This document shows positions 4,355 to 55,000 of a stretch of 64,000 bases of DNA, piece after piece. The number at the start of each line of letters is the position of its first letter. Within the stretch, counting starts at the first letter, position 1. The DNA is from Paecilomyces variotii. Taxonomy: Eukaryota. Position numbers and translations under genes: made by a program. The stretch lies in NCBI GenBank assembly GCA_004022145.1, contig RCNU01000010.1. The stretch is one strand, 5' to 3'. The notes under the pieces were generated by a model that had not been told where the DNA came from, did not search any database, and saw only the letters and a program-made list of their open reading frames with translations.

Positions 4355-7300
4355 ATGTCTGGCAACCCCAAGCGCGGCGGGCGCGGACAGAGCCGTGGTG
4401 GTGGCAGGGGGGACTTCAACCTACCCATCCATTCAGGGCGAGGAGGAGGTCGCGGTCGTGGAGGAGATCGTGGTGGACGTGGTAGAGGCCGTGGAGCACC
4501 AGTCGAAGTTTACAGGTAAGCTACTTTGATATATTCTTCTTTCTGTTTTATATATATCTCACATCTGAGTTATGTAGTGCCAATGCTCCAGTGCCGGTTG
4601 ATGCCAAAGCGGCGCAGGTCGAAACACAGACTGAGAAGGCCATCAAGCAGGAACCCAAGGCCCTCAGAGTTCAACTGCCCCTGAGACCCGGTTATGGCAC
4701 CCAGGGTCGGCCTGTGGAGTTGTGGGCGAACCATCTGCACCTCATGCCTAAAGGCGATCTCATACTACATCGTTATAGCGTTGATATCGTGCTCGACGCA
4801 GGTAGCCGCCAACCCGCAGGGAAGAAGCTCCGGCGCCTTGTCCAGCTCTTGCTCCAAGAGCATTTCGGGCAGTACGACCGTCAGATAGCCACGGACTTCA
4901 AGTCTACTCTTGTCTCGCGACAGAAGCTGGACCTGGACAATAATGGCTATCAGGTCCGTTACCGCAGTGAAGACGAAGACGAGGCAGCGGACAATGCCCC
5001 ATTGTATCGCATGCGCGTTCAGCCCACTGGGACGTTGACGGTTGCTCAACTCATTGATTACCTATCCTCGTCGAATGTCAGCGCTGTGCTGAATTCAAAG
5101 GAGGAGATCATCCAGGCGTTGAACATCGTACTAGGACACACTGCACGAGCCGCACCAAATGTCACTTCTGTTGGCAGCAGCAAGCATTACCCACTGGCCA
5201 GATCGACAGAGGAGAAGTTTGATCTTGGAGCGGGTCTCATTGCTGTCAGAGGATTCTTGATGAGTGTTCGAGCCGCAACTGCACGGCTCCTGGTCAACGT
5301 GCAGGTGAAGCATGCTGCCTTCTACCAAGAAGGTCCTCTCGAGCAACTGATGCAGGCTTACATGGTCGCAAACCCCAGCAAGGTCAAGCTGGCGAGTTTC
5401 CTAAACAAACTCTCCGTCAATGTCACCCACATTGTCCGCAAGAACAAGGCGGGCCAGCTCATCCCTCGGATAAAGGTCATCTGTGGCCTGGCAATGCGCG
5501 ATGACGGCCGGAACCAAGCACATCCCCCTATTGTTCCTTCTTTTGGAGCTGGCCCTAAGGAGGTGCAATTTTTCATTGGAGACGAAAATCAATCACCAAG
5601 CTCCGGTCCTAGTGGGAAAGGGAAGAAGAAAGGCAAGAATCCGCCCAAGGCTGGACCTGAACCCCCGAGCCAGGAAGGCTATATCAGTGTCTATGACTTT
5701 TTCCGCCGCAGTAAGTGAGGAGACCGCCATGTCTTTTTCAGTATGCTCATAAACATAGGCTACAATATTCAGCTTCGACACACGGATCTACCAGTGGTCA
5801 ATGTCGGCTCGCGAGAGAATCCGACGTATCTCCCAGCTGAAGTCTGCGAAGTGCGTGCTGGACAGGCGGCGAACGCGAAGCTATCCTCGAGGCAGACACA
5901 GAATATGATCAGATTCGCAGTACGCAGACCAGTAGACAATGCGCAATCTATCGTCACCTCTGGTGTGAGCTTGTTGGGATTCAATTCAGCTAACCCAACC
6001 TTGGTACGTGCAAGTCCCCATGATTCCGTGATTGTGCTGACTGTGAAGAACGCTTTCGGTGTCAATGTGAATCCCATCTTGATTACCGTTCCAGGCCGCG
6101 TGTTGAATAGTCCCGATGTCCGCTATGGAAACAAAAGCATTTCGACCAGGTCTGGTAGCTGGAATATGTCTGAAGTGCAGTTCGCAACCAAATCCACTCT
6201 CACCTCCTGGACATATCTGCGCATCTCCTTTCCAGATGCCACCGAGAGCCCATGGAAGAGTGTAGCTGAGTTTCAGAAGACCTTTGAGGAATTTACAAAG
6301 ATATTGCAAAAATCTGGGGTAGTCACAGGGATGGCAGTTCAGGGAATGGATATCACGGTCGACCCGGATAACCCACAAGCCACGATCGATAACGCTATCG
6401 GTCTATTTGCACGAAGCAAAATCCGGGCGCCCCCCAAGATGCTTTTGGTGATCCTACCTGATACTACAGCTGCCGTCTACAACCGCGTTAAATATGCGTG
6501 CGACGTGAAAGAAGGTTTACTGAATGTCTGCGTGATCGCCAGCAAATTCGCCGAGAATTCGACCCCATACTTCGCCAATGTAGCCCTCAAGTTCAACCTC
6601 AAGCTAGGTGGCAGCAACCATCTCCTGGATAACTCCAAGCTCGGGCTCCTTGCCCAGGGCCGTACTATGGTTGTTGGCGCAGACGTCACCCATCCTTCTC
6701 CGGGCTCTGCAGGGAACGCACCCAGCGTAGCCAGTGTCGTAGCTTCAGTCGACCACCGGATGGGGCAATGGCCAGCTGCATTACGAATTCAGCCTCAGGC
6801 CCGGCAAGAGATGATCGGAGGTCTGGACGAGTTGTTCAAGAGCCGTCTCCGTCTCTGGACTAAACATAACAAAAACACCTATCCCGAGAACATATTGATG
6901 TATCGTGATGGAGTCTCAGAAGGTCAATACCAGCTTGTCCTTAACGAGGAGCTTCCCTTACTGCGAAAGGCGTGCAAGGAGATGTATCCAGCCTCAGATA
7001 CCAAGAAAGGTCTCCCGCATATCACCATCGTGATCGTGGGCAAGCGTCATAATACCCGGTTTTACCCTACCACTGTACAAAACGCAGATCGATCATCAAA
7101 CCCGCAAAACGGCACGGTCGTTGACCGCGGTGTTACAGAGGCGCGCAACTGGGATTTCTTCCTGCAGGCACACAGTGCGATTCAAGGGACTGCCCGGCCA
7201 GCCCATTATTATATCGTCCACGACGAGATATTCCAGCGCACGAAAGTGTCTCCCCCATTCGCTAATGCCGCGGATGTTCTAGAAAACCTCACTCACAATC

Positions 7301-20300: not shown

Positions 20301-23300
20301 ATTGGAAAATGACAAAAAGTAAAAAAGTCAAAAAAAGGTAAAAAAGAAACGTGTGTGCGGCTACTCCAGAGAGTCACGATACCGAGACATCCACACCGGC
20401 AAATCTGTGGTGCCCACACGACAATAATGCTACTCTCCCATATCTACGGTAGAGTTGAGTATTATTATTATGGTATCACAATCGAGTACTCTCAGACACC
20501 GAGGTCGGGATCTGTCCTGGCGGGCCTTTCTCGGCATTATTGCAGTAAAGCAATCACTCGCAAAAGGCAGGTGCTGCGATGCAAAAATTGGCAACCCCCG
20601 CCCAGCCAGCGCCAATCTCGCGCTAGAAACTCTTGGACGGCCAGCCATGACATCAGCCTGCATGGCCTGGAACCCTCCGAGAACCCGCGGCTGACTGCGC
20701 CGCCGTGATTCGCTCTCCTCCTCCGTTCCCCCCCAACTCGACGCTTTCTGTCATCCCGTGAGTTTCTCGGGAACTCCCGCGGGGCCTTTGGCTTCTGGTC
20801 TTCCTCCCTAGAGTAGACTAGGCCAATCTGACACCAGACTCGCTCGTACCAGAAGACAAACTGCTTCACAATAATGTTCACATCATCAACCACAAGCTGA
20901 AATCCACAAGACGATTGTAACTGCACTCGATCGGGGAGGTTAAACGCTCGATATCATATCATATCACAATCTCTTGGCCCGATCCAGCTTGGAGTCATGG
21001 ACCCGGTTCCTCCAGACTCTCCCGCCATGGATCTGGGCCCATAAAATGCTGACCACTCTTGCTTGTACTCTAAACGGCTGCTTGCCCGCTGGCTCCCCGC
21101 GGGTGTCTCTTACACGGATAGGACACTCGAGTCCAGGGAGCTCCTCAAATCGGTTTCTCGCTTCCTTAAATCTATTTTGAGGATCATATCATATTGGGCT
21201 TGGGTATCCACCGTTGGAAACCCCGATCAATTGGTGATCTAGACGTATTCTATCGCCCTTCCTTGACTATCGGGGCTTAGGCCATGCACGAAGCTGATTC
21301 TGCGGTAAAGCAGTCGTCAGCAGCCGCGCTTGCATAACTGGTGTTAGTTATTGTCCTCTTGGATGTTTATACATTAAACTAGAATCGGAAAGATTACCAG
21401 TGATCGCTTCGTTCCAAGACCAAGCAAGTAGTACTTCTTCGTACTACGTACTCTATCATCGATCTCAATTGGGAATCTCTTCGGGATTCAATACTCGCTC
21501 ACGTGCGGATATTCCTCCCCGAAAACTTGGAAAGTTTGATGACTTCTCCACGGTTCTCACCGTGACCATGGATAACATCTCGCAAGAATTTCTGGAAGGG
21601 TGGAAACCCCCGCTCTCGTTGTCCTTCTAATCATATACAACATCGGAGGCAGAATCCGATTCCTCATTGGTCCCCTGAAATGCATGTCCCTCACTCAAAG
21701 AGATTGGTTGCTATTTCGGGAATCCATCTCCACGAGTATGGTATATCTGTATCAGGACTCTTATCAGGATGTCCGATGAAGGAATAATGAAATCACTTTC
21801 CGCATAACAGGCTACAATAATACAGGACCTACCTTGCTTTTCCATACTCCACGAAGTGACTATCACTCTGTGCATACGTGACGTCAAACCCGATACCTTG
21901 TGAGAGGGAAAAACAAGAAGAGAACAAACTGATCAAAACCCCGCTTACCCTTATTACTAATGAATCTGTAGAATACTATAGTACAGTACATCTTACTGGA
22001 TTCTATTCTAAAGCATCCTCACAGGTTTGTTGTACCATTGGTCCGGCTCAAAAGACCCCTTCCTATATCCGACTAATCGGAAGCGATAGGCCCTTTGTTT
22101 TTTCCAATCTCTCTATCTAACCAATTTTCTTCTTTTCGTTTTTTTTTTTCATTGGTCCTCCCCCGCATGCCTGAAGCAGTGCCTACTCTACTATAATTAG
22201 CATTTGTAGTATAGATACCCACGTGACTTGCGATGTGTGTACTGTAGCCTCGTCGTGAGGAGATATATACTTATCAATCGGTCACGGATAAGCGAGTTCT
22301 ATAGACGGTAGGGGGTAGATGAATTCCTATAGCTACCAAAAATCAGAGAAAGGGTTAAATTTTGATCTAGTTGCGTTTGCGCATATCGATACCGCGCTCT
22401 GCTTAGTGGGGAAGTGAGATAGATACCTAGCTGCCCCGACAGGAAACATAGTTCCTAGAGTTAACTACTGCTCAACGGACAGAGGTTATCTGGTGGTTCT
22501 TTAGACTGTGAGCAGGAATTATGTTTTGTTTATTTGCACTGCGCCTATCCTATTATTTTGCCCGTGGATTTATAGACAACTAAGAAAACCGCATATATAT
22601 ACATATTTCCAGTACTCACTGCATACCTGTAGAAGCGATAATTACAGTACCCAGCACGTGGACCGTTTCATCTCACTTATATCGGGTTCAATGAAGTGGA
22701 CGACGTTAATTGTCCTATATACCTCACGCAGCGGCAGGGCAAATCGCCGGGATATATATAGCTCCATGCTCTCTCAATTAAAAATATCCCTAACAGTCCC
22801 TGGAACTGACTCATGGGAAGTGAACTCAGGCTAGACATGTTAATCGTTTAGATAACGCATAAGTCCCGGAATAAGGCAGTGTCAGAGCCAGAGAGGGTGC
22901 TGGCTAGAGAGTCGAGGGGGTCACTGTGGGCGAATGCGTCGGAGGTTAGACTCGTAGTCGAGTGCGCTTCGCAACGCTCTAATTGCGCGCTTATAGCGAG
23001 GTCTAGTTAGGTTCTAGCGAGCTGCGCACGCATTTCTGATCGTAAAGTAATCCAAGGACACGTTTTCAGTGGTGGTACAACATGCGCTGGGTATCGCGCC
23101 ATGGCACGGAGTCTCTCGCGTAGGAGCTGCTGAGCGGACGGGTTGTTTTCTAACAATAGCCTGTCTGAGTATTATGCTAGATCACATTGATATAATATGA
23201 AGCACTAATAGTACTAAAAAAAAAAAACTCTCTTTATTTTATCATTCCGCGCTCAATAATCATAACTAGATACCCTACACGAACTTGCAATTGAAAATGC

Positions 23301-23328
23301 CTAAAATCGCTACGCAAGCACAACAACA

Positions 23329-23462
23329 GCCCTTATAGCTCAGTGGTAGAGCGCAACACGTACGTACCTCTCAAAAACAGCTCCCATTTCATTGTTACTA
23401 ATAGATCCTAGTTGTATCATACCTCGATATGTTGAGGCCCGCGTCGATCCCGCGTGGGGGCA
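23329..23462 (+). tRNA. tRNA-Thr(UGU) gene or pseudogene, with a spliceosomal-type insert (23360-23411), a canonical 37/38 intron (23417-23428) and a shortened T-arm
   Basis: Acceptor stem GCCCTTA/TGGGGGC plus discriminator A; D-arm GCTC-AGTGGTA-GAGC (A-box); anticodon stem CAACA/TGTTG. The loop C|T-TGT-A|A forms only after both inserts are removed. An oligo-T terminator follows at about 23478-23484. Confidence 0.85.
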
Positions 23463-24447
23463 ATTATCCACTCAATCTTTTTTTGCCTCTTCGTCACGTG
23501 GTTCTGGGGTATTTTGGTTCGTATCCATATAAAGCCGGAATATTTTTTTTTTCTAGCTTTCTTTTTGATCGGTGTTTATGGATTCTGTATATTATAAGGT
23601 GTAGGTCTGTTATATGACTGTAGAAAGTAAAACGTAAAGATACCGTATAGATAGTTTCGAGAAAAGAGGAAGAAGAAAGCAGTTAGATGGAATCGTTCTG
23701 AATTAATTTATTAGTTCCTAGCGAAACAGACCTAACGATTCCCTAATGGCAAATACCTAAGCAGGCTATTAATCCATCTGGACTACTGACAACTCTACAA
23801 AGCGGTAGTATTGCGCTGGATGGCCACATACCGTAGGCATAGTTTCGCTAGCGCTCGACTGCTATGGTATTCGGAGACGGGGAAGTCTCCGAGTGTCTGA
23901 CTGCAGGCGTCAAGATACTCAACCAGGTAGCTTCTAACAACGAGCGTAGTAGAAACCGAAGTGAATACATGGACAACCGAGCGGTTTACTAAACTACTAT
24001 AGACCTCCCTGCAGATATAGCTAAAGACTGAGACTTAATGAATGATCTCGTTGAGATGAATTTAAGTATTTAGAGTAACAATTATTGTGACACTGTACAG
24101 GGGAGAGCTATGCCAGAAGAAAGCATGTAAGGGGATCTGGGATTAAGATGTATTTAATAAAGTGGGCGTTAGGAGTTAGCAGGACGACAAAGCGGGTACC
24201 TAGTCCTGGTGAAACCAGAATGACCTACCCAAACGAGGGATAGGATGATGATATTACTTCCCACTAAAAGGGGTGTTGCCATCTAATAGCTACACACAAA
24301 GCGGGCTCAAATGGCAGAATTCTCCCTAGAGTGGTGACACTGACTATTGCCATTAACCCTTATTCCAAAAAGTAGCTCAATCTCCATGTCAGACATGTTG
24401 GATCCCCCCTACAGTGGTCCCTGCTGGGCGCCCCTTTGCACTGGCGA

Positions 24448-24484
24448 TCACGTGACCGGGAGAATCCTATATAGGATCTCCCGG
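24448..24484. promoter_or_regulatory. E-box (TCACGTGA) abutting a near-perfect 29-bp palindrome centred on TATATA
   Basis: TCACGTGA at 24448-24455, then CCGGGAGAATCCTAT/ATAGGATCTCCCGG at 24456-24484, about 80-100 nt upstream of the ATG at 24562. Confidence 0.45.
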
Positions 24485-24561
24485 GCTTCCTAGATTAGTA
24501 ATAGAACAAGCTTCTCACCGCTTCCTTCAAGACACACTCACCACACATACTAAACTTCAAA

Positions 24562-27531
24562 ATGCCACCAAGATCCAAAAAGGTTAAGACTACTGCACCA
24601 AACCACCATACTCAAGCACTGATTGGAAACCATGTGGAAATGAGACCACTTAATCCAGATGACCCTGAGTTCAAAGATGAGGAGAACGATGTAAGCCAGA
24701 GGCCCAGAGACCTGGGACTGTCAGGATAGCAAGTATCTCACGCTCTACTTTATAGGTATCCTTTTCTGTTCAGCCAGAGGTTATTATTCCTTGTTTTGAG
24801 GCTATCACAACTAGCTTAGTCGAGAACCTTCACCTGGAAGTCTGGAAAGAGTTCGATATTCTATCGTACTGGGGACATATTGAAATGCTCGGGGGGTTAA
24901 AAGCAGTAGTTTCGGAAACCCTCAGATGTATCCATCCAAAAATCAGGTCTCTTGAAGGCAAGAGAGTCACCCCTCAGACGTAAGTCCACAATTCGAGCAT
25001 CTAACTTGGTATCGATGAGGTCTGTTAACACATAGAAGATTGGACGATATTCGGTGTAGTGATCCTGCACACTGGCCAGCCCACAGCGGGTACCTAAGTT
25101 ACGTCAAGGATCTGAGAAACAGCCAATACTGGCGCGCTTATGTCGGTCAATCGTCGAAACCCGCTCATCGCATAAAACAGCATATGGATGCATATTTCAA
25201 ACGGGATCAGTCTACTTTACATTATTATATCCTTTCTAAAGCACGAAGTCACAGATCAATGGGTTTCATTCCTCTCTGGAGTATACCTTTGAGTGATTCC
25301 GACGAAAGCGAAACTTGCCGGCATCTGCTTCTGAGTAATGTCCTTGAGATGGTTATGTGTCGAGCGTTTCAGACTTTGTCAAATGCTGCACTGCAGAAAT
25401 TTTTTGGAGATGCGGACAAATCAGAATATGCGAATGTAGGCCTCAATATTCTTCCACCCCTACTCCAAGGACTTGAAGTTAGTAGGTCAACCAGGCGACT
25501 ATATACAAAAGGTTTCGAAGATTCTCCCGACCCGCAAGTTCAACAATGGCCCAAAGTCAGGCAGGAACAGCTGCATTCATTTATAAGATCTTCAAATAAT
25601 CTAGAACGCCGTATCCAACGGAAAGTCAATGGAGATTACTACAAAATCGCTCTGGCAAAAGCAATTGAAGGATACGATTTGCCCAATCCTATTCAAGATT
25701 TTGCAGAGATTAATTTGGTTTCATCACAGCCTGAAGACATGGTGAGCTTAATGAAAGAAGCATCATCTTCTATCGAAGCTGTTTCCAGCGGACCGGATTT
25801 AATACGACCATTCGGTCAACTTGCGGCGAAAATTGGCATTGTTTTAGATTGGTGCCCTGTCAACAGAGCAGAAAGCGAATATTCTATCAGAAACAATATC
25901 ACGGCAGTTCCACCAATTCTTATGAACTGTGGCTTCAACCAAAATAACTCCCTGATTTGGACCTACACATCTAAAGCATGCATTTCTATCTAACAGCGCT
26001 GCTTTGATTGAAAGCGCACTTGAAGACCAAGTTATCCGATCAGTCCATTCCAAACTTATCCAGAAGTCTAACCTTCGCGTGATCCTACTGTGCGGTCTAA
26101 ATGCCGAAAGGAGCATTGTGTCTCCTGGACTATCTCCTATTAAAATCGAACTTCAAGGGTATTCCTACTCTGCTTATATTGAATTAAAGGAGACTGGGGC
26201 TGAAATCAAACGACTATATGTACGGTTACCGTTTTCATTGACTTCCTTACGTTCCACAAACTGGAGGCAATGCATGCAATTTGGCGAATTGTTGAGATTC
26301 GTAACAGTAATTCTGGATACAAAGGAGATCCGGGGCTATTCTATGGCAAACCAATCTGTATATCGCTTTATCATTACGCAATATGCTGATGAGCGGGACT
26401 CAAAATGCGATCCAATGACTATTGGAACCCTTGACCCAATTCTCCTCGATTGGCTTGCATTGAAAGGAATAGTTCATCAAGATGCTATTCTAGAATTTGC
26501 AAAACTCGGTGGAAGTATGATCCGTGGCATTCTACTACTATTAGTGAGCCTTCCTAGGAAACCAAAGGGAACATATCCGTGTTCGAAGCGGGAGCTTTAT
26601 CAAGGACATGAGACTCGTATCCCACTCTTCAGCCTAGAGCAACTAGAAAGATCTAGGAGGCTCTACAGAAAAACACGCGTGTCGCTGCATAGTAGCGAAA
26701 AATCTAATTCATTGAGCTCTGGTAGTCAACCCGACAGCACTCAACTCAACAACGCTGGACTCGAGGACGCCGAACTTGATGACGCCTTGATGCGCTCTCA
26801 GAAGCTTGATGAGATCTTAAAGGAACCGGCGCTTCTTGACGATGTCTTGAAAGAAGACGTGTTTGAGGACCTTGAAGAATATAATGTTGAATCTTTACTG
26901 CAGAATCAAGCAAGTGCAGCCTTCTCTGATGATCAAGATCCTGATGATGAAGGAGCGGATGATCCCAGGAGCCTCTACTATCGACCGAGAATAAGTCTCA
27001 ATGCAATGAAGGAACTATTGAATGGCCGATTTTACAAGGGAAAAAATTGCATAAGACCACCCAATACTTTCCAAATCAATGTCTGGGAAGTAAATTTGAT
27101 TATATCCAATCAAGATAAAGACATCGATTTTGATCGAGGGTTCGTGGTCACTATGGATATTAGCCCTCCTGGCATCCGGAACCCAAATGTTTACGTCGCA
27201 ACAGCTCTAGATAGCGATCCAGCTTCAAGAGTTGCTTTTAATGTCACTGCGACCAGCAATTCAGGAGAACGGATATCAATATACCCGCAAAGCACTAAAA
27301 GGAATAAAAAGGTAATCATGAAAGTGAATACTCTTTTCGACTATTTACAAGGTATGCTTGCCAATAAAGACAGGAGATCTTCCAAAATTAATATCAAATA
27401 AAGGTCTGTCGCTGGGTGAAGTAATTGCAACTCCTCGGAGGTTTGTAGCGATTCAGAAATCGGAGATGGCACTTAGGGATACACGTTTGAGCAGATTCAT
27501 CTATCCAGGTGACTTCACAGACGGAAGTTAA
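24562..27531 (+). pseudogene. Large hypothetical protein with an N-terminal GIY-YIG-like nuclease domain and one apparent frameshift near 25960-25995
   Basis: Exons 24562-24690, 24756-24979, 25036 onward and a last exon of about 27404-27531 splice in frame. Motifs: GYLSY..AYVGQS....RIKQH...VLE...GLN. ORFs 25040-25993 and 26004-27401 are in different frames with no plausible intron between them. Confidence 0.6.
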
Positions 27532-35162: not shown

Positions 35163-35469
35163 TTTGGCGGGTTGAATAATGAGGCTGGGACGTAGGTTGG
35201 GTGAAGAGAGAAATATATCAACCAGAGACTGCGAGGTTGATAGTTAATGATCACTATCTCGTATCACGGCGAACTATTGTTACTCTAAGGCTTAAGCAGC
35301 CGCCCAGGCTCCAGGTTCGAATCGCCGAATATATTTTCCCGTTCCGATCCTAAAATAGACTAGCGCAGGAAAACTCACTGGCGCGGCTCCACTCAAGGCC
35401 CCAAATAAAAAAGATCGCGTTTTCTCTTCTCTTTCTCTTTTTCTTTTTTTTCTTCTTCATTCACAACAA

Positions 35470-35826
35470 ACCTACAGATCTGTGTCCTGCGATCCTGGCC
35501 ACGGATAAGTTGCTTGCTTCTGCTTGCGACGGACTCTGTGTGTCCGGTTGATTGCTCGACAGTTCGACGACCAAGGAGCCATCACTACGCCTTTTTCAAA
35601 GGTGTAGGAAATGGTGTCAATTTCCGGTCGACAGATCTCAGAGCGAAGTCCAGCTCCGGTGCTTCACTTCGGTCTTGAGCTCCCTTCCTCTTCTCTCCCC
35701 TTACGGGGAAGGGAGGTTGGTGAGTTCGACTGGATGGCCTGGTTGCTGGCGGCGTCATATTCCCAGTCCCTTTGCCGAGGCCGTTGGCTGGTGAGGTTAG
35801 GGAAAAACCATGACATGCCAACATTA
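35470..35826 (+). ncRNA. SNR30: H/ACA snoRNA snR30/U17 homolog (5' end approximate)
   Basis: The 3' hairpin has m1 ATATTCCCA (35757-35765) and m2 AAACCAT (35805-35811) on opposite strands, with a closing stem TGGC..GTC/GAC..GCCA and an ACA box at 35821-35823. The 5' domain is closed by AGATCTGT (35476-35483)/ACAGATCT (35631-35638), followed by an H-box-like AGAGCG. Confidence 0.82.
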
Positions 35827-54447: not shown

Positions 54448-54566
54448 ACATACGACCATAGGGTGTGGAAAACAGGGCTTCCCGTCCGCTCAGCCGTACT
54501 TAAGCCACACGCCGGCAGGTTAGTAGTTGGGTGGGTGACCACCAGCGAATCCCTGCTGTTGTATGT
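54448..54566 (+). rRNA. 5S: Dispersed 5S rRNA gene
   Basis: ACATACGACCATAGGGTGTGGAAAACAGGGCTTCCCGTCCGCTCAGCCGTACTTAAGCC...TGTTGTATGT, 119 nt, with pairing ends and an oligo-T terminator immediately after. Confidence 0.98.
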
Positions 54567-55000
54567 TTTTCTTTTTTTTTAATCTGAAATCTATTTTGCC
54601 TCTCCCAATTCTTGTCGTTAGCCATTGTTGCTGCCTTGATTTCCCGTTGAAATTTCAAAGTGATAGAGGGCTTGTCAACAATTGACTGTGTGCAATATGT
54701 GGCTTCTCCGCTATCTTGAAGATAACTTAACTGGTCTGCCCTTCTAGTTGATTATCCGTGTCGAGATTGCTGACCGGAGCTTTGGTTGCTTCCTAGTGGC
54801 TGGAATGAATTGTATATAGTAGAGGGTAACAGAGACGGTTATCATGCATGCTATGTTGTAAAATTGGGACTCGTGCAAGGAATATGTTCCATATATTGGC
54901 TTCAACTGGATGTTTTCCTATAACCAACCTGGACCGTGGTATATGATTCGTATAGTTAAATAAAGTAAATTGCAGCAATATATGCCTCGCATGCTGTTCA

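Follow-up and report, generated by a model that had tools for sequence, protein, structure and literature searches.

A conserved and very probably spliced mRNA-type intron in the anticodon loop of a tRNA-Thr(UGU)-like gene of Paecilomyces variotii

In passages of two reviews, spliceosomal and tRNA introns are distinct systems, each with substrates of its own: one calls the two classes unrelated and places spliceosomal introns in Pol II transcripts (PMC12530127), and the other, from 2023, puts eukaryotic tRNA introns between N37 and N38 and there mentions the spliceosome only as a contrast (PMC10275265). Introns of the mRNA type are also known in the genes of U6, U2, U5 and U1 snRNA and in rRNA genes, and part of PMC5855946 sets out a model of their origin by reverse splicing. 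A sequence of Paecilomyces variotii raises the question whether both classes can interrupt one and the same tRNA anticodon loop and, if so, whether a tRNA can still be made from it. The sequence lies in a stretch of 64,000 nucleotides (assembly GCA_004022145.1, contig RCNU01000010.1), hereafter the window, and had been noticed from its letters as a tRNA-Thr(UGU) gene carrying a 52-nt spliceosomal-type intron and a normal 12-nt tRNA intron. The original prediction was aware of no intron of the first kind in a nuclear tRNA, and this agrees with a full-text literature search across main texts outside subscription journals, in which no description of a spliceosomal intron in a tRNA gene was found; passages of PMC3879985 and PMC3978253 contain none either. 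The analysis reported here indicates that this intron is genuine, that it is conserved and undergoes splicing, and that it is apparently without precedent in a tRNA gene.

Two adjoining inserts in a tRNA-Thr(UGU)-like sequence

On re-reading of the sequence, all coordinates given in the original prediction for the interrupted tRNA-Thr(UGU)-like sequence turned out to be correct (Table 1). By inspection, the acceptor, D and anticodon arms of the window copy are perfect.

Table 1. Coordinates of features at the interrupted tRNA locus (L001, contig of a relative; X17, run recorded as RNA)
Feature	Position in window	Strand	Evidence or remark
tRNA exon 1: acceptor 5′ strand (7 nt), D arm, anticodon-stem 5′ strand CAACA, C32	23329–23359	+	Rfam tRNA model aligns identical stretch in L001; 31/31 identical to L001
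A-box-like TAGCTCAGTGG	23336–23346	+	In D arm of tRNA exon 1
Spliceosomal-type intron, 52 nt, between C32 and U33	23360–23411	+	Sequence signals; X17 RNA joint 23359–23412; signals kept in all alleles
5′ splice site GTACGT of 52-nt intron	23360–23365	+	
Branch site TACTAAT of 52-nt intron	23396–23402	+	Branch A23401, 10 nt before AG at 23410–23411
3′ splice site TAG of 52-nt intron	23409–23411	+	
tRNA exon 2: TTGTA = U33, anticodon UGU, A37	23412–23416	+	Sequence; ARAGORN calls
tRNA-type intron, 12 nt, canonical 37/38 site	23417–23428	+	ARAGORN i(37,12); kept in spliced RNA contig
tRNA exon 3: A38 (23429), TGTTG (23430–23434), variable loop, shortened T arm, acceptor 3′ strand, discriminator A	23429–23462	+	
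Defective T arm and B box	23440–23454	+	2 nt short relative to relatives
T7 run, Pol III terminator-like	23480–23486	+	18 nt past tRNA end; L001 has a T7 run too
Conserved 3′ flank	23463–23598	+	124/135 aligned bases identical to L001; homology to L001 stops at 23598
CACGTG	23495–23500	+	Inside conserved 3′ flank
TATAAAG	23528–23534	+	Inside conserved 3′ flank
T10 run	23543–23552	+	Inside conserved 3′ flank
Poly(A) addition site of + strand RNA	23719–23720	+	X17 record 31, 19 non-templated A's

The longer insert has the features of a U2-type (GT-AG) intron, namely a 5′ splice site of the form GTANGT at the exon boundary, a CTRAY branch site, a YAG end, and exact removal between them. Given the local base composition, the chance that an arbitrary insert starts with GTANGT, ends with YAG and has CTRAY within 20 nt of its end is ~3e-6. 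Introns in the mRNAs of Aspergillus-like fungi are typically 50–70 nt long, and the GTACGT that had been pointed out at 6004 of the window is indeed present there. A strict scan of the window for intron motifs returned one on the + strand and seven on the – strand, against 4.2 ± 2.2 per strand in shuffled sequence, which is uninformative on intron style.

The shorter insert lies at the site used by ordinary tRNA introns. In canonical tRNA introns an anticodon–intron (A-I) pair is formed by the pyrimidine at position 32 and the purine 3 nt before the 3′ splice site. Here C32 (23359) can pair with G23426, at –3 from the 3′ end of the 12-nt intron, and the same is true of L001. Since this pair is possible only once the 52 nt are gone, the order of events, spliceosome first and endonuclease second, is forced. 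The claim that the 12-nt insert comes to stand at 37/38 when the 52 nt are taken out is supported by ARAGORN, which reports i(37,12) both for L001 and for a diagnostic version of the window sequence (see below).

An A box and a T-loop/B box GGTTCGANNCC are consensus elements of tRNA genes. Compared with a nuclear tRNA gene of Pol III type 2, the window copy has the A box and a T run downstream; the B box/T-loop GGTTCGANNCC is missing and the cloverleaf is incomplete.

Within the window, neither a paralogue of either tRNA half or of a 280-nt block nor a donor of the intron was found, the best other matches to these queries being 15 nt long (E 0.014). The surroundings, ~20.7–24.5 kb, contain no ORF of at least 110 aa, Pfam assigned none of four flanking ORFs (131–481 aa) to a family, and L001 has no long ORF after the conserved block. 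Two other elements in the window matched Rfam above the gathering score, the A. fumigatus sRNA Afu_309 at 35459–35826 (+; matched over its full length with 206 bits), which suggests an Aspergillus-like (Eurotiales) source of the window, and a 5S rRNA gene at 54448–54567 (+; 84.6 bits).

Removal of the 52 nt in RNA contigs

Parts of 23200–23600 are contained in 20 runs from nine studies, and six of these runs are recorded as RNA, all of them food or fermentation metatranscriptomes. Contigs, rather than reads, were aligned to 22300–24700 from three RNA runs (X15, X16 and X17) and from one DNA run of another organism (X12, organism B). Contig assemblies drop rare forms and cannot prove absence, and standard libraries capture mature tRNA poorly.

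A 128-nt contig of X17 (record 27, with one differing letter) joins 23359 to 23412, skipping exactly 52 nt with GT..AG ends, and has 34 letters on the shorter side of the joint. It keeps the 12-nt insert at 23417–23428 and, like the window, is without the two T-arm bases discussed below. This is the intermediate junction, 52 nt gone and 12 nt still present, that had been predicted to occur in RNA, and the exact GT|AG removal supports the assignment of the 52-nt insert as a spliceosomal-type intron, all signals of which are present. The joint was found in one of the three RNA runs and in none of the contigs of the DNA run, where both of two alleles contain the intron, and no other joint is listed; a single run from a single study thus supplies the spliced form, with a contig depth of 5.1. 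Another X17 contig stops at 23355 and carries 9 loose letters that equal the last four exon bases of a variant allele followed by TTGTA; we read them as the spliced junction of another allele, with five of the nine letters being informative. Contigs of X15 and X16 over the locus, at depth 55–60, retain the intron and have no joint listed, and these libraries may contain DNA or unspliced or precursor RNA; the missing joint there, like stretches lacking RNA coverage, carries no weight in the present argument.

Could the joined form have arisen other than by splicing? Such a contig would also result if the X17 sample contained DNA of an allele or paralogue without the intron, or if the reverse transcriptase had switched templates; RNA libraries can contain DNA, and the joint was seen in a single contig of one library. 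However, no letter at the joint fits both sides, which rules out a microhomology artefact and leaves a template switch nothing to act on, and the junction falls exactly at GT..AG. The contig also matches the 3′ flank of the window to 23505 with one difference, and therefore belongs to this locus, and in the DNA run both alleles carry the intron. We consider a source other than splicing improbable, and it is very likely that the 52-nt intron is genuinely spliced.

Removal might also be the work of the tRNA endonuclease, if the 52 nt were a bulge-helix-bulge intron at a non-canonical position. Part of PMC3978253 provides a precedent for this in the alga Cyanidioschyzon merolae, and by eye intron bases 2–5 (UACG) can pair with U34–A37 (UGUA) to make a 4-bp central helix. 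The motif was defined as two 3-nt bulges holding the cut sites with a 4-bp helix between them, and precursors of the window and of L001 were folded without constraints. Neither the minimum-free-energy nor the centroid folds have such a motif at both sites, and the folds are no better than those of shuffled sequences (z –0.76 for the window and –1.17 for L001). An endonuclease substrate, moreover, leaves the correctly spaced GTANGT, CTAAT and YAG unexplained, and the RNA that has lost the 52 nt still has its canonical 12-nt intron. This origin of the joint is thus even less credible, and we give it very little weight compared with spliceosomal removal.

The extent of the spliced RNA bears on the polymerase that makes it. 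Record 27 reaches 23505 and so extends the tRNA by 43 nt and the T7 run (23480–23486) by 19 nt, though these 19 letters are fewer than the 31 required to count it as bridging. Further contigs of X17, records 28/29 (23476–23534), 30 (23505–23592) and 31 (23563–23720), are linked by overlaps of 30 nt, and the last of them, record 31, finishes with 19 A's. Because the genome reads GCGAAACAG after 23720, this tail is non-templated and represents a poly(A) tail of the + strand. From the overlaps we infer that junction and tail belong to one molecule. With the 12-nt insert and a 3′ trailer, the spliced RNA resembles a Pol II transcript across the tRNA more than a Pol III pre-tRNA, and what was seen is apparently a Pol II-type transcript. 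Among the cases that the original prediction named as refuting it is an insert that is an intron of an unrelated Pol II transcript running across a dead tRNA, and the transcript does resemble that case. RNA with both inserts removed, that is, the mature tRNA junction that had also been expected, is not listed among the contigs of X15, X16 and X17, which can drop rare forms.

The 3′ flank, which contains CACGTG, TATAAAG and the T10 run, could be a Pol II promoter or belong to the non-coding transcript. Farther downstream, a short element at 24396–24530 has a very high RNA contig depth (up to ~1500 in X16) with many loose ends on both sides, as if it were repeated or shared by many organisms. 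It contains CACGTG (24449–24454) and a 30-nt palindrome around TATATA (24456–24485) and lies just upstream of an ATG at 24563.

The T arm, a relative and the alleles of the locus

The T arm of the window copy has a 4-bp stem CGCG/CGCG and a loop TCGATCC, is without the GGTTCGA B box, and is 2 nt short, a gap that had escaped the original prediction. It is because of this gap that no tRNA finder makes a call at the locus, with or without the inserts. ARAGORN at default called no tRNA in the window, and it made no call in any of 16 sequence/option pairs (full locus, or minus the 52 nt, the 12 nt or both, with introns allowed or at default); with the threshold lowered to 70% it made 193 calls across the window, which amount to noise. 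The Rfam tRNA model had no match in the window at the gathering score, nor on 23250–23550 at E up to 10. The tRNA score had been expected to jump upon deletion of 23360–23411; this did not happen, as the deleted sequence still gives no call while the T arm is without its 2 nt. In a diagnostic version, two bases of the type found in relatives were added behind 23443 and the 52 nt removed, and ARAGORN then called Thr(tgt) with a 12-nt intron at 37; when the two T-arm bases were left out of the same diagnostic, there was no call. In a control, 5 of 11 arbitrary GT..AG deletions also yielded some call, and the ARAGORN calls with one long intron considered below are therefore unspecific.

Scanning metagenomes for the 5′ half followed by CGTANGT gave no match, and a second scan gave a single contig, L001 (1242 nt). 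Its positions 118–253 hold the same gene, with an exon 1 identical to that of the window, TTGTA, a 12-nt insert with one change, and a 52-nt insert with GTAAGT, ATGACTAAT and TAG. The T arm of L001 is fully canonical (CGCGG TTCGATC CCGCG). The Rfam tRNA model matches 118–253 with 41.3 bits (gathering 29; E 4.8e-7), placing 77 inserted bases in the anticodon arm, and ARAGORN calls Thr(tgt) i(37,12) after deletion of the 52 nt. On intact L001 with introns allowed, ARAGORN reports Leu(aag), a mis-call. The suspicion that finders would probably miss or mis-call genes of this sort agrees with the default silence on the window and the wrong identity for L001.

Taken at face value, calls of this type describe a different tRNA, with one long intron and another anticodon: for L001 it is Leu(aag) i(38,47), and for the diagnostic version of the window Ser(cga) i(31,64), both made by ARAGORN with introns allowed. 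The anticodon would then, however, include position 4 of the 5′ splice site, where near-identical alleles have C, A or T, so that the identity of the tRNA would flip from one to the next, and either a G at position 33 or an 89-nt tRNA would be required. The RNA junction at 23359/23412 contradicts both calls, and calls were likewise obtained from the arbitrary deletions in the control above. We rejected this candidate, the probability of which we regard as negligible.

Between the window and L001, 68/70 exon bases are identical, apart from the 2-nt gap, as are 49/52 bases of the 52-nt intron and 11/12 of the 12-nt intron. Inside the intron, conservation thus equals that of the exons, unlike what a plain intron would show. 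The original prediction had anticipated conserved splice signals around a divergent interior: the signals are kept in all alleles, but the interior differs from L001 no more than the exons do. Outside the gene, the 3′ flank (124/135 identical up to 23598) is far better conserved than the upstream sequence 23218–23318 (67/101).

The 5′ splice site is GTACGT in the window, GTAAGT in L001, and GTATGT in X15, X16 and X12, the alleles differing at position 4, the degenerate position of GTANGT. Every allele seen has the same ACTAAT and TAG, despite indels of 5 and 8 nt just behind the 5′ splice site. On the 5′ side two allele types are found, CAACA with the short intron, and CAGTA with 5 or 8 extra bases right behind GTATGT; on the 3′ side the types are TGTTG without the two T-arm bases and TACTG with them. 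CAACA/TGTTG, a Watson-Crick stem, occurs in the window, in the spliced X17 contig and in one X12 allele; CAGTA/TACTG, also Watson-Crick and with an intact T arm, in X16; CAGTA/TGTTG, with G-U and U-G pairs, in X15 and the other X12 allele; and CAACA/TACTG, with A.C and C.A mismatches, in L001. The two T-arm bases, or a canonical T arm, are present in two of six sources, X16 (where GT is inserted behind 23443) and L001; the other four, namely the window, X12, X15 and the X17 contig with the joint, do not have them.

The anticodon stems of the window and X16 differ by two fully compensatory base-pair changes, with X15 as the wobble intermediate. From the letters of the alleles, such changes are suggestive of past selection on the anticodon stem. 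All four combinations of stem halves occur; this weakens the covariation and speaks for recombination, for gene conversion from paralogues or for chimeric assembly.

Two further observations concern the copies sampled. In X12, the block 23206–23592 is covered about twice as deeply as the sequence downstream (8.5–11.3 versus 4.9–5.9) and resolves into two equally deep alleles (7.7 each). This suggests that the interrupted tRNA locus is present twice, as paralogues or because the sample contains two genomes. In X12, X15 and X16, contigs begin to match the window at 23206 and diverge upstream, and an A12 run lies at 23218–23229; the break at 23206 suggests that one lineage has undergone an insertion or rearrangement ~100 nt before the tRNA.

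Does the locus nevertheless give a tRNA in this genome? It might be a working tRNA-Thr(UGU) gene whose Pol III transcript is matured by the spliceosome and then by TSEN/Trl1, and several features would fit: the A-box-like sequence, the T7 run 18 nt downstream, the perfect acceptor, D and anticodon arms, the pairing of C32 with the G at –3 of the 12-nt intron, the compensatory stem changes between alleles, and a 52-nt intron free of T runs of at least 4. Fission yeast offers a parallel, U6 of S. pombe being described in part of PMC5855946 as a Pol III transcript with spliceosomal removal of its intron. Against this, the window, X12 and X15 alleles and the spliced X17 RNA are all without the 2 T-arm nt and so have no T-loop or B box, ARAGORN and Rfam are silent on the window copy, and the spliced RNA keeps the 12-nt intron and a trailer beyond the T7 run, with no mature junction among the contigs. 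We think it unlikely that the gene works in this manner.

Proposed explanation and comparison with known systems

The explanation that we favour, and hold to be reasonably probable as a whole, is that a tRNA-Thr(UGU) gene with a 12-nt intron at 37/38 gained a U2-type intron at 32/33, that this intron is spliced in Pol II-type RNA, and that the window allele is decaying. The gene would already have had its ordinary 12-nt intron when the GT-AG intron was acquired between 32 and 33. A candidate route is reverse splicing into the exposed anticodon loop with subsequent reverse transcription and recombination, as modelled for U6. A Pol II-type transcript would run through the tRNA and past the T7 run and be polyadenylated at 23720; if so, the substrate of the spliceosome would be a long non-coding transcript instead of a short Pol III pre-tRNA. 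Where the T arm is intact (X16 type, L001), RNase P and RNase Z, followed by TSEN and ligase, could then free a normal tRNA. In the window allele, a later 2-nt deletion would have removed the T-loop and B box.

Since T-loop and B box are missing from the window allele, the element there is in all likelihood no working tRNA gene but either a tRNA in decay or a tRNA-like module within a spliced non-coding RNA, and a functional tRNA from this copy is doubtful. For some relative's copy a working tRNA is a better prospect, if still a tentative one. It is likewise conceivable, at about the same modest level of confidence, that relatives with an intact T arm (X16 type, L001), and possibly this genome as well, make tRNA-Thr(UGU) only after the spliceosome and then TSEN and ligase have acted on one anticodon loop, where the spliceosomal step would take place on a Pol II-type or a Pol III transcript.

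If maturation does pass through both machineries, no nuclear tRNA gene before this one would have been found to carry a spliceosomal intron; the case would point to tRNA genes that standard finders miss, and tRNA output would be coupled to mRNA-type splicing. Should the copy in the window be the sole source of tRNA-Thr(UGU), decoding of ACA would depend on the spliceosome; should it be redundant, it would show a tRNA gene decaying into a tRNA-like piece of a non-coding RNA. True excision from a tRNA anticodon loop would extend the hosts of mRNA-type introns beyond snRNAs and rRNA. The locus also provides a natural test case for intron gain via reverse splicing into an exposed loop, and raises the question whether tRNA is made from Pol II transcripts in fungi. 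For annotation, it marks a blind spot of tRNA finders, ARAGORN being silent here at default and naming the relative's gene Leu when introns are allowed.

The nearest known systems are the intron-bearing snRNA genes, U6 of S. pombe and many other yeasts and U2, U5 and U1 of Rhodotorula hasegawae. As in those, canonical splice sites and a branch site lie in the gene of a small structural RNA, and removal restores the conserved RNA; U6, in the account given in part of PMC5855946, is a Pol III transcript. Unlike in the snRNA cases, the host here is a tRNA, which stands outside the spliceosome, so that the insertion cannot be put down to proximity to the catalytic centre. A second intron of another class also lies beside the one described here, and the spliced RNA looks like a polyadenylated Pol II-type transcript. 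Spliceosomal introns were reportedly described in the rRNA genes of ascomycetes by Bhattacharya et al. in 2000. These resemble the present case in that the host is an abundant structural RNA from outside the spliceosome (as cited in part of PMC5855946). They differ from it in that the host is a Pol I rRNA.

Among tRNA introns, the nuclear tRNA genes of Cyanidioschyzon merolae likewise can have more than one intron per gene, one of them non-canonical. Those introns, as described in part of PMC3978253, are bulge-helix-bulge substrates of the endonuclease, whereas here the signals are spliceosomal and the folds have no such motif. The 12-nt insert conforms to canonical introns removed by TSEN and tRNA ligase, by its 37/38 position in the ARAGORN calls and by the C32/G(–3) pair; the 52-nt insert does not, lying at 32/33 with GT..AG ends and a branch site and being removed while the 37/38 intron stays.

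The mascRNA of MALAT1 is a tRNA-like fold processed from a Pol II transcript. Insect RNase P RNA, located within an intron of a Pol II gene according to part of PMC6797745, is similarly a Pol III-type RNA obtained from a Pol II transcript. Unlike the locus studied here, those small RNAs have no spliceosomal intron of their own, and release of a tRNA from the present transcript is putative. In its host class, a tRNA, the intron differs from those of the RNA classes described so far with mRNA-type introns, the snRNAs and rRNA.
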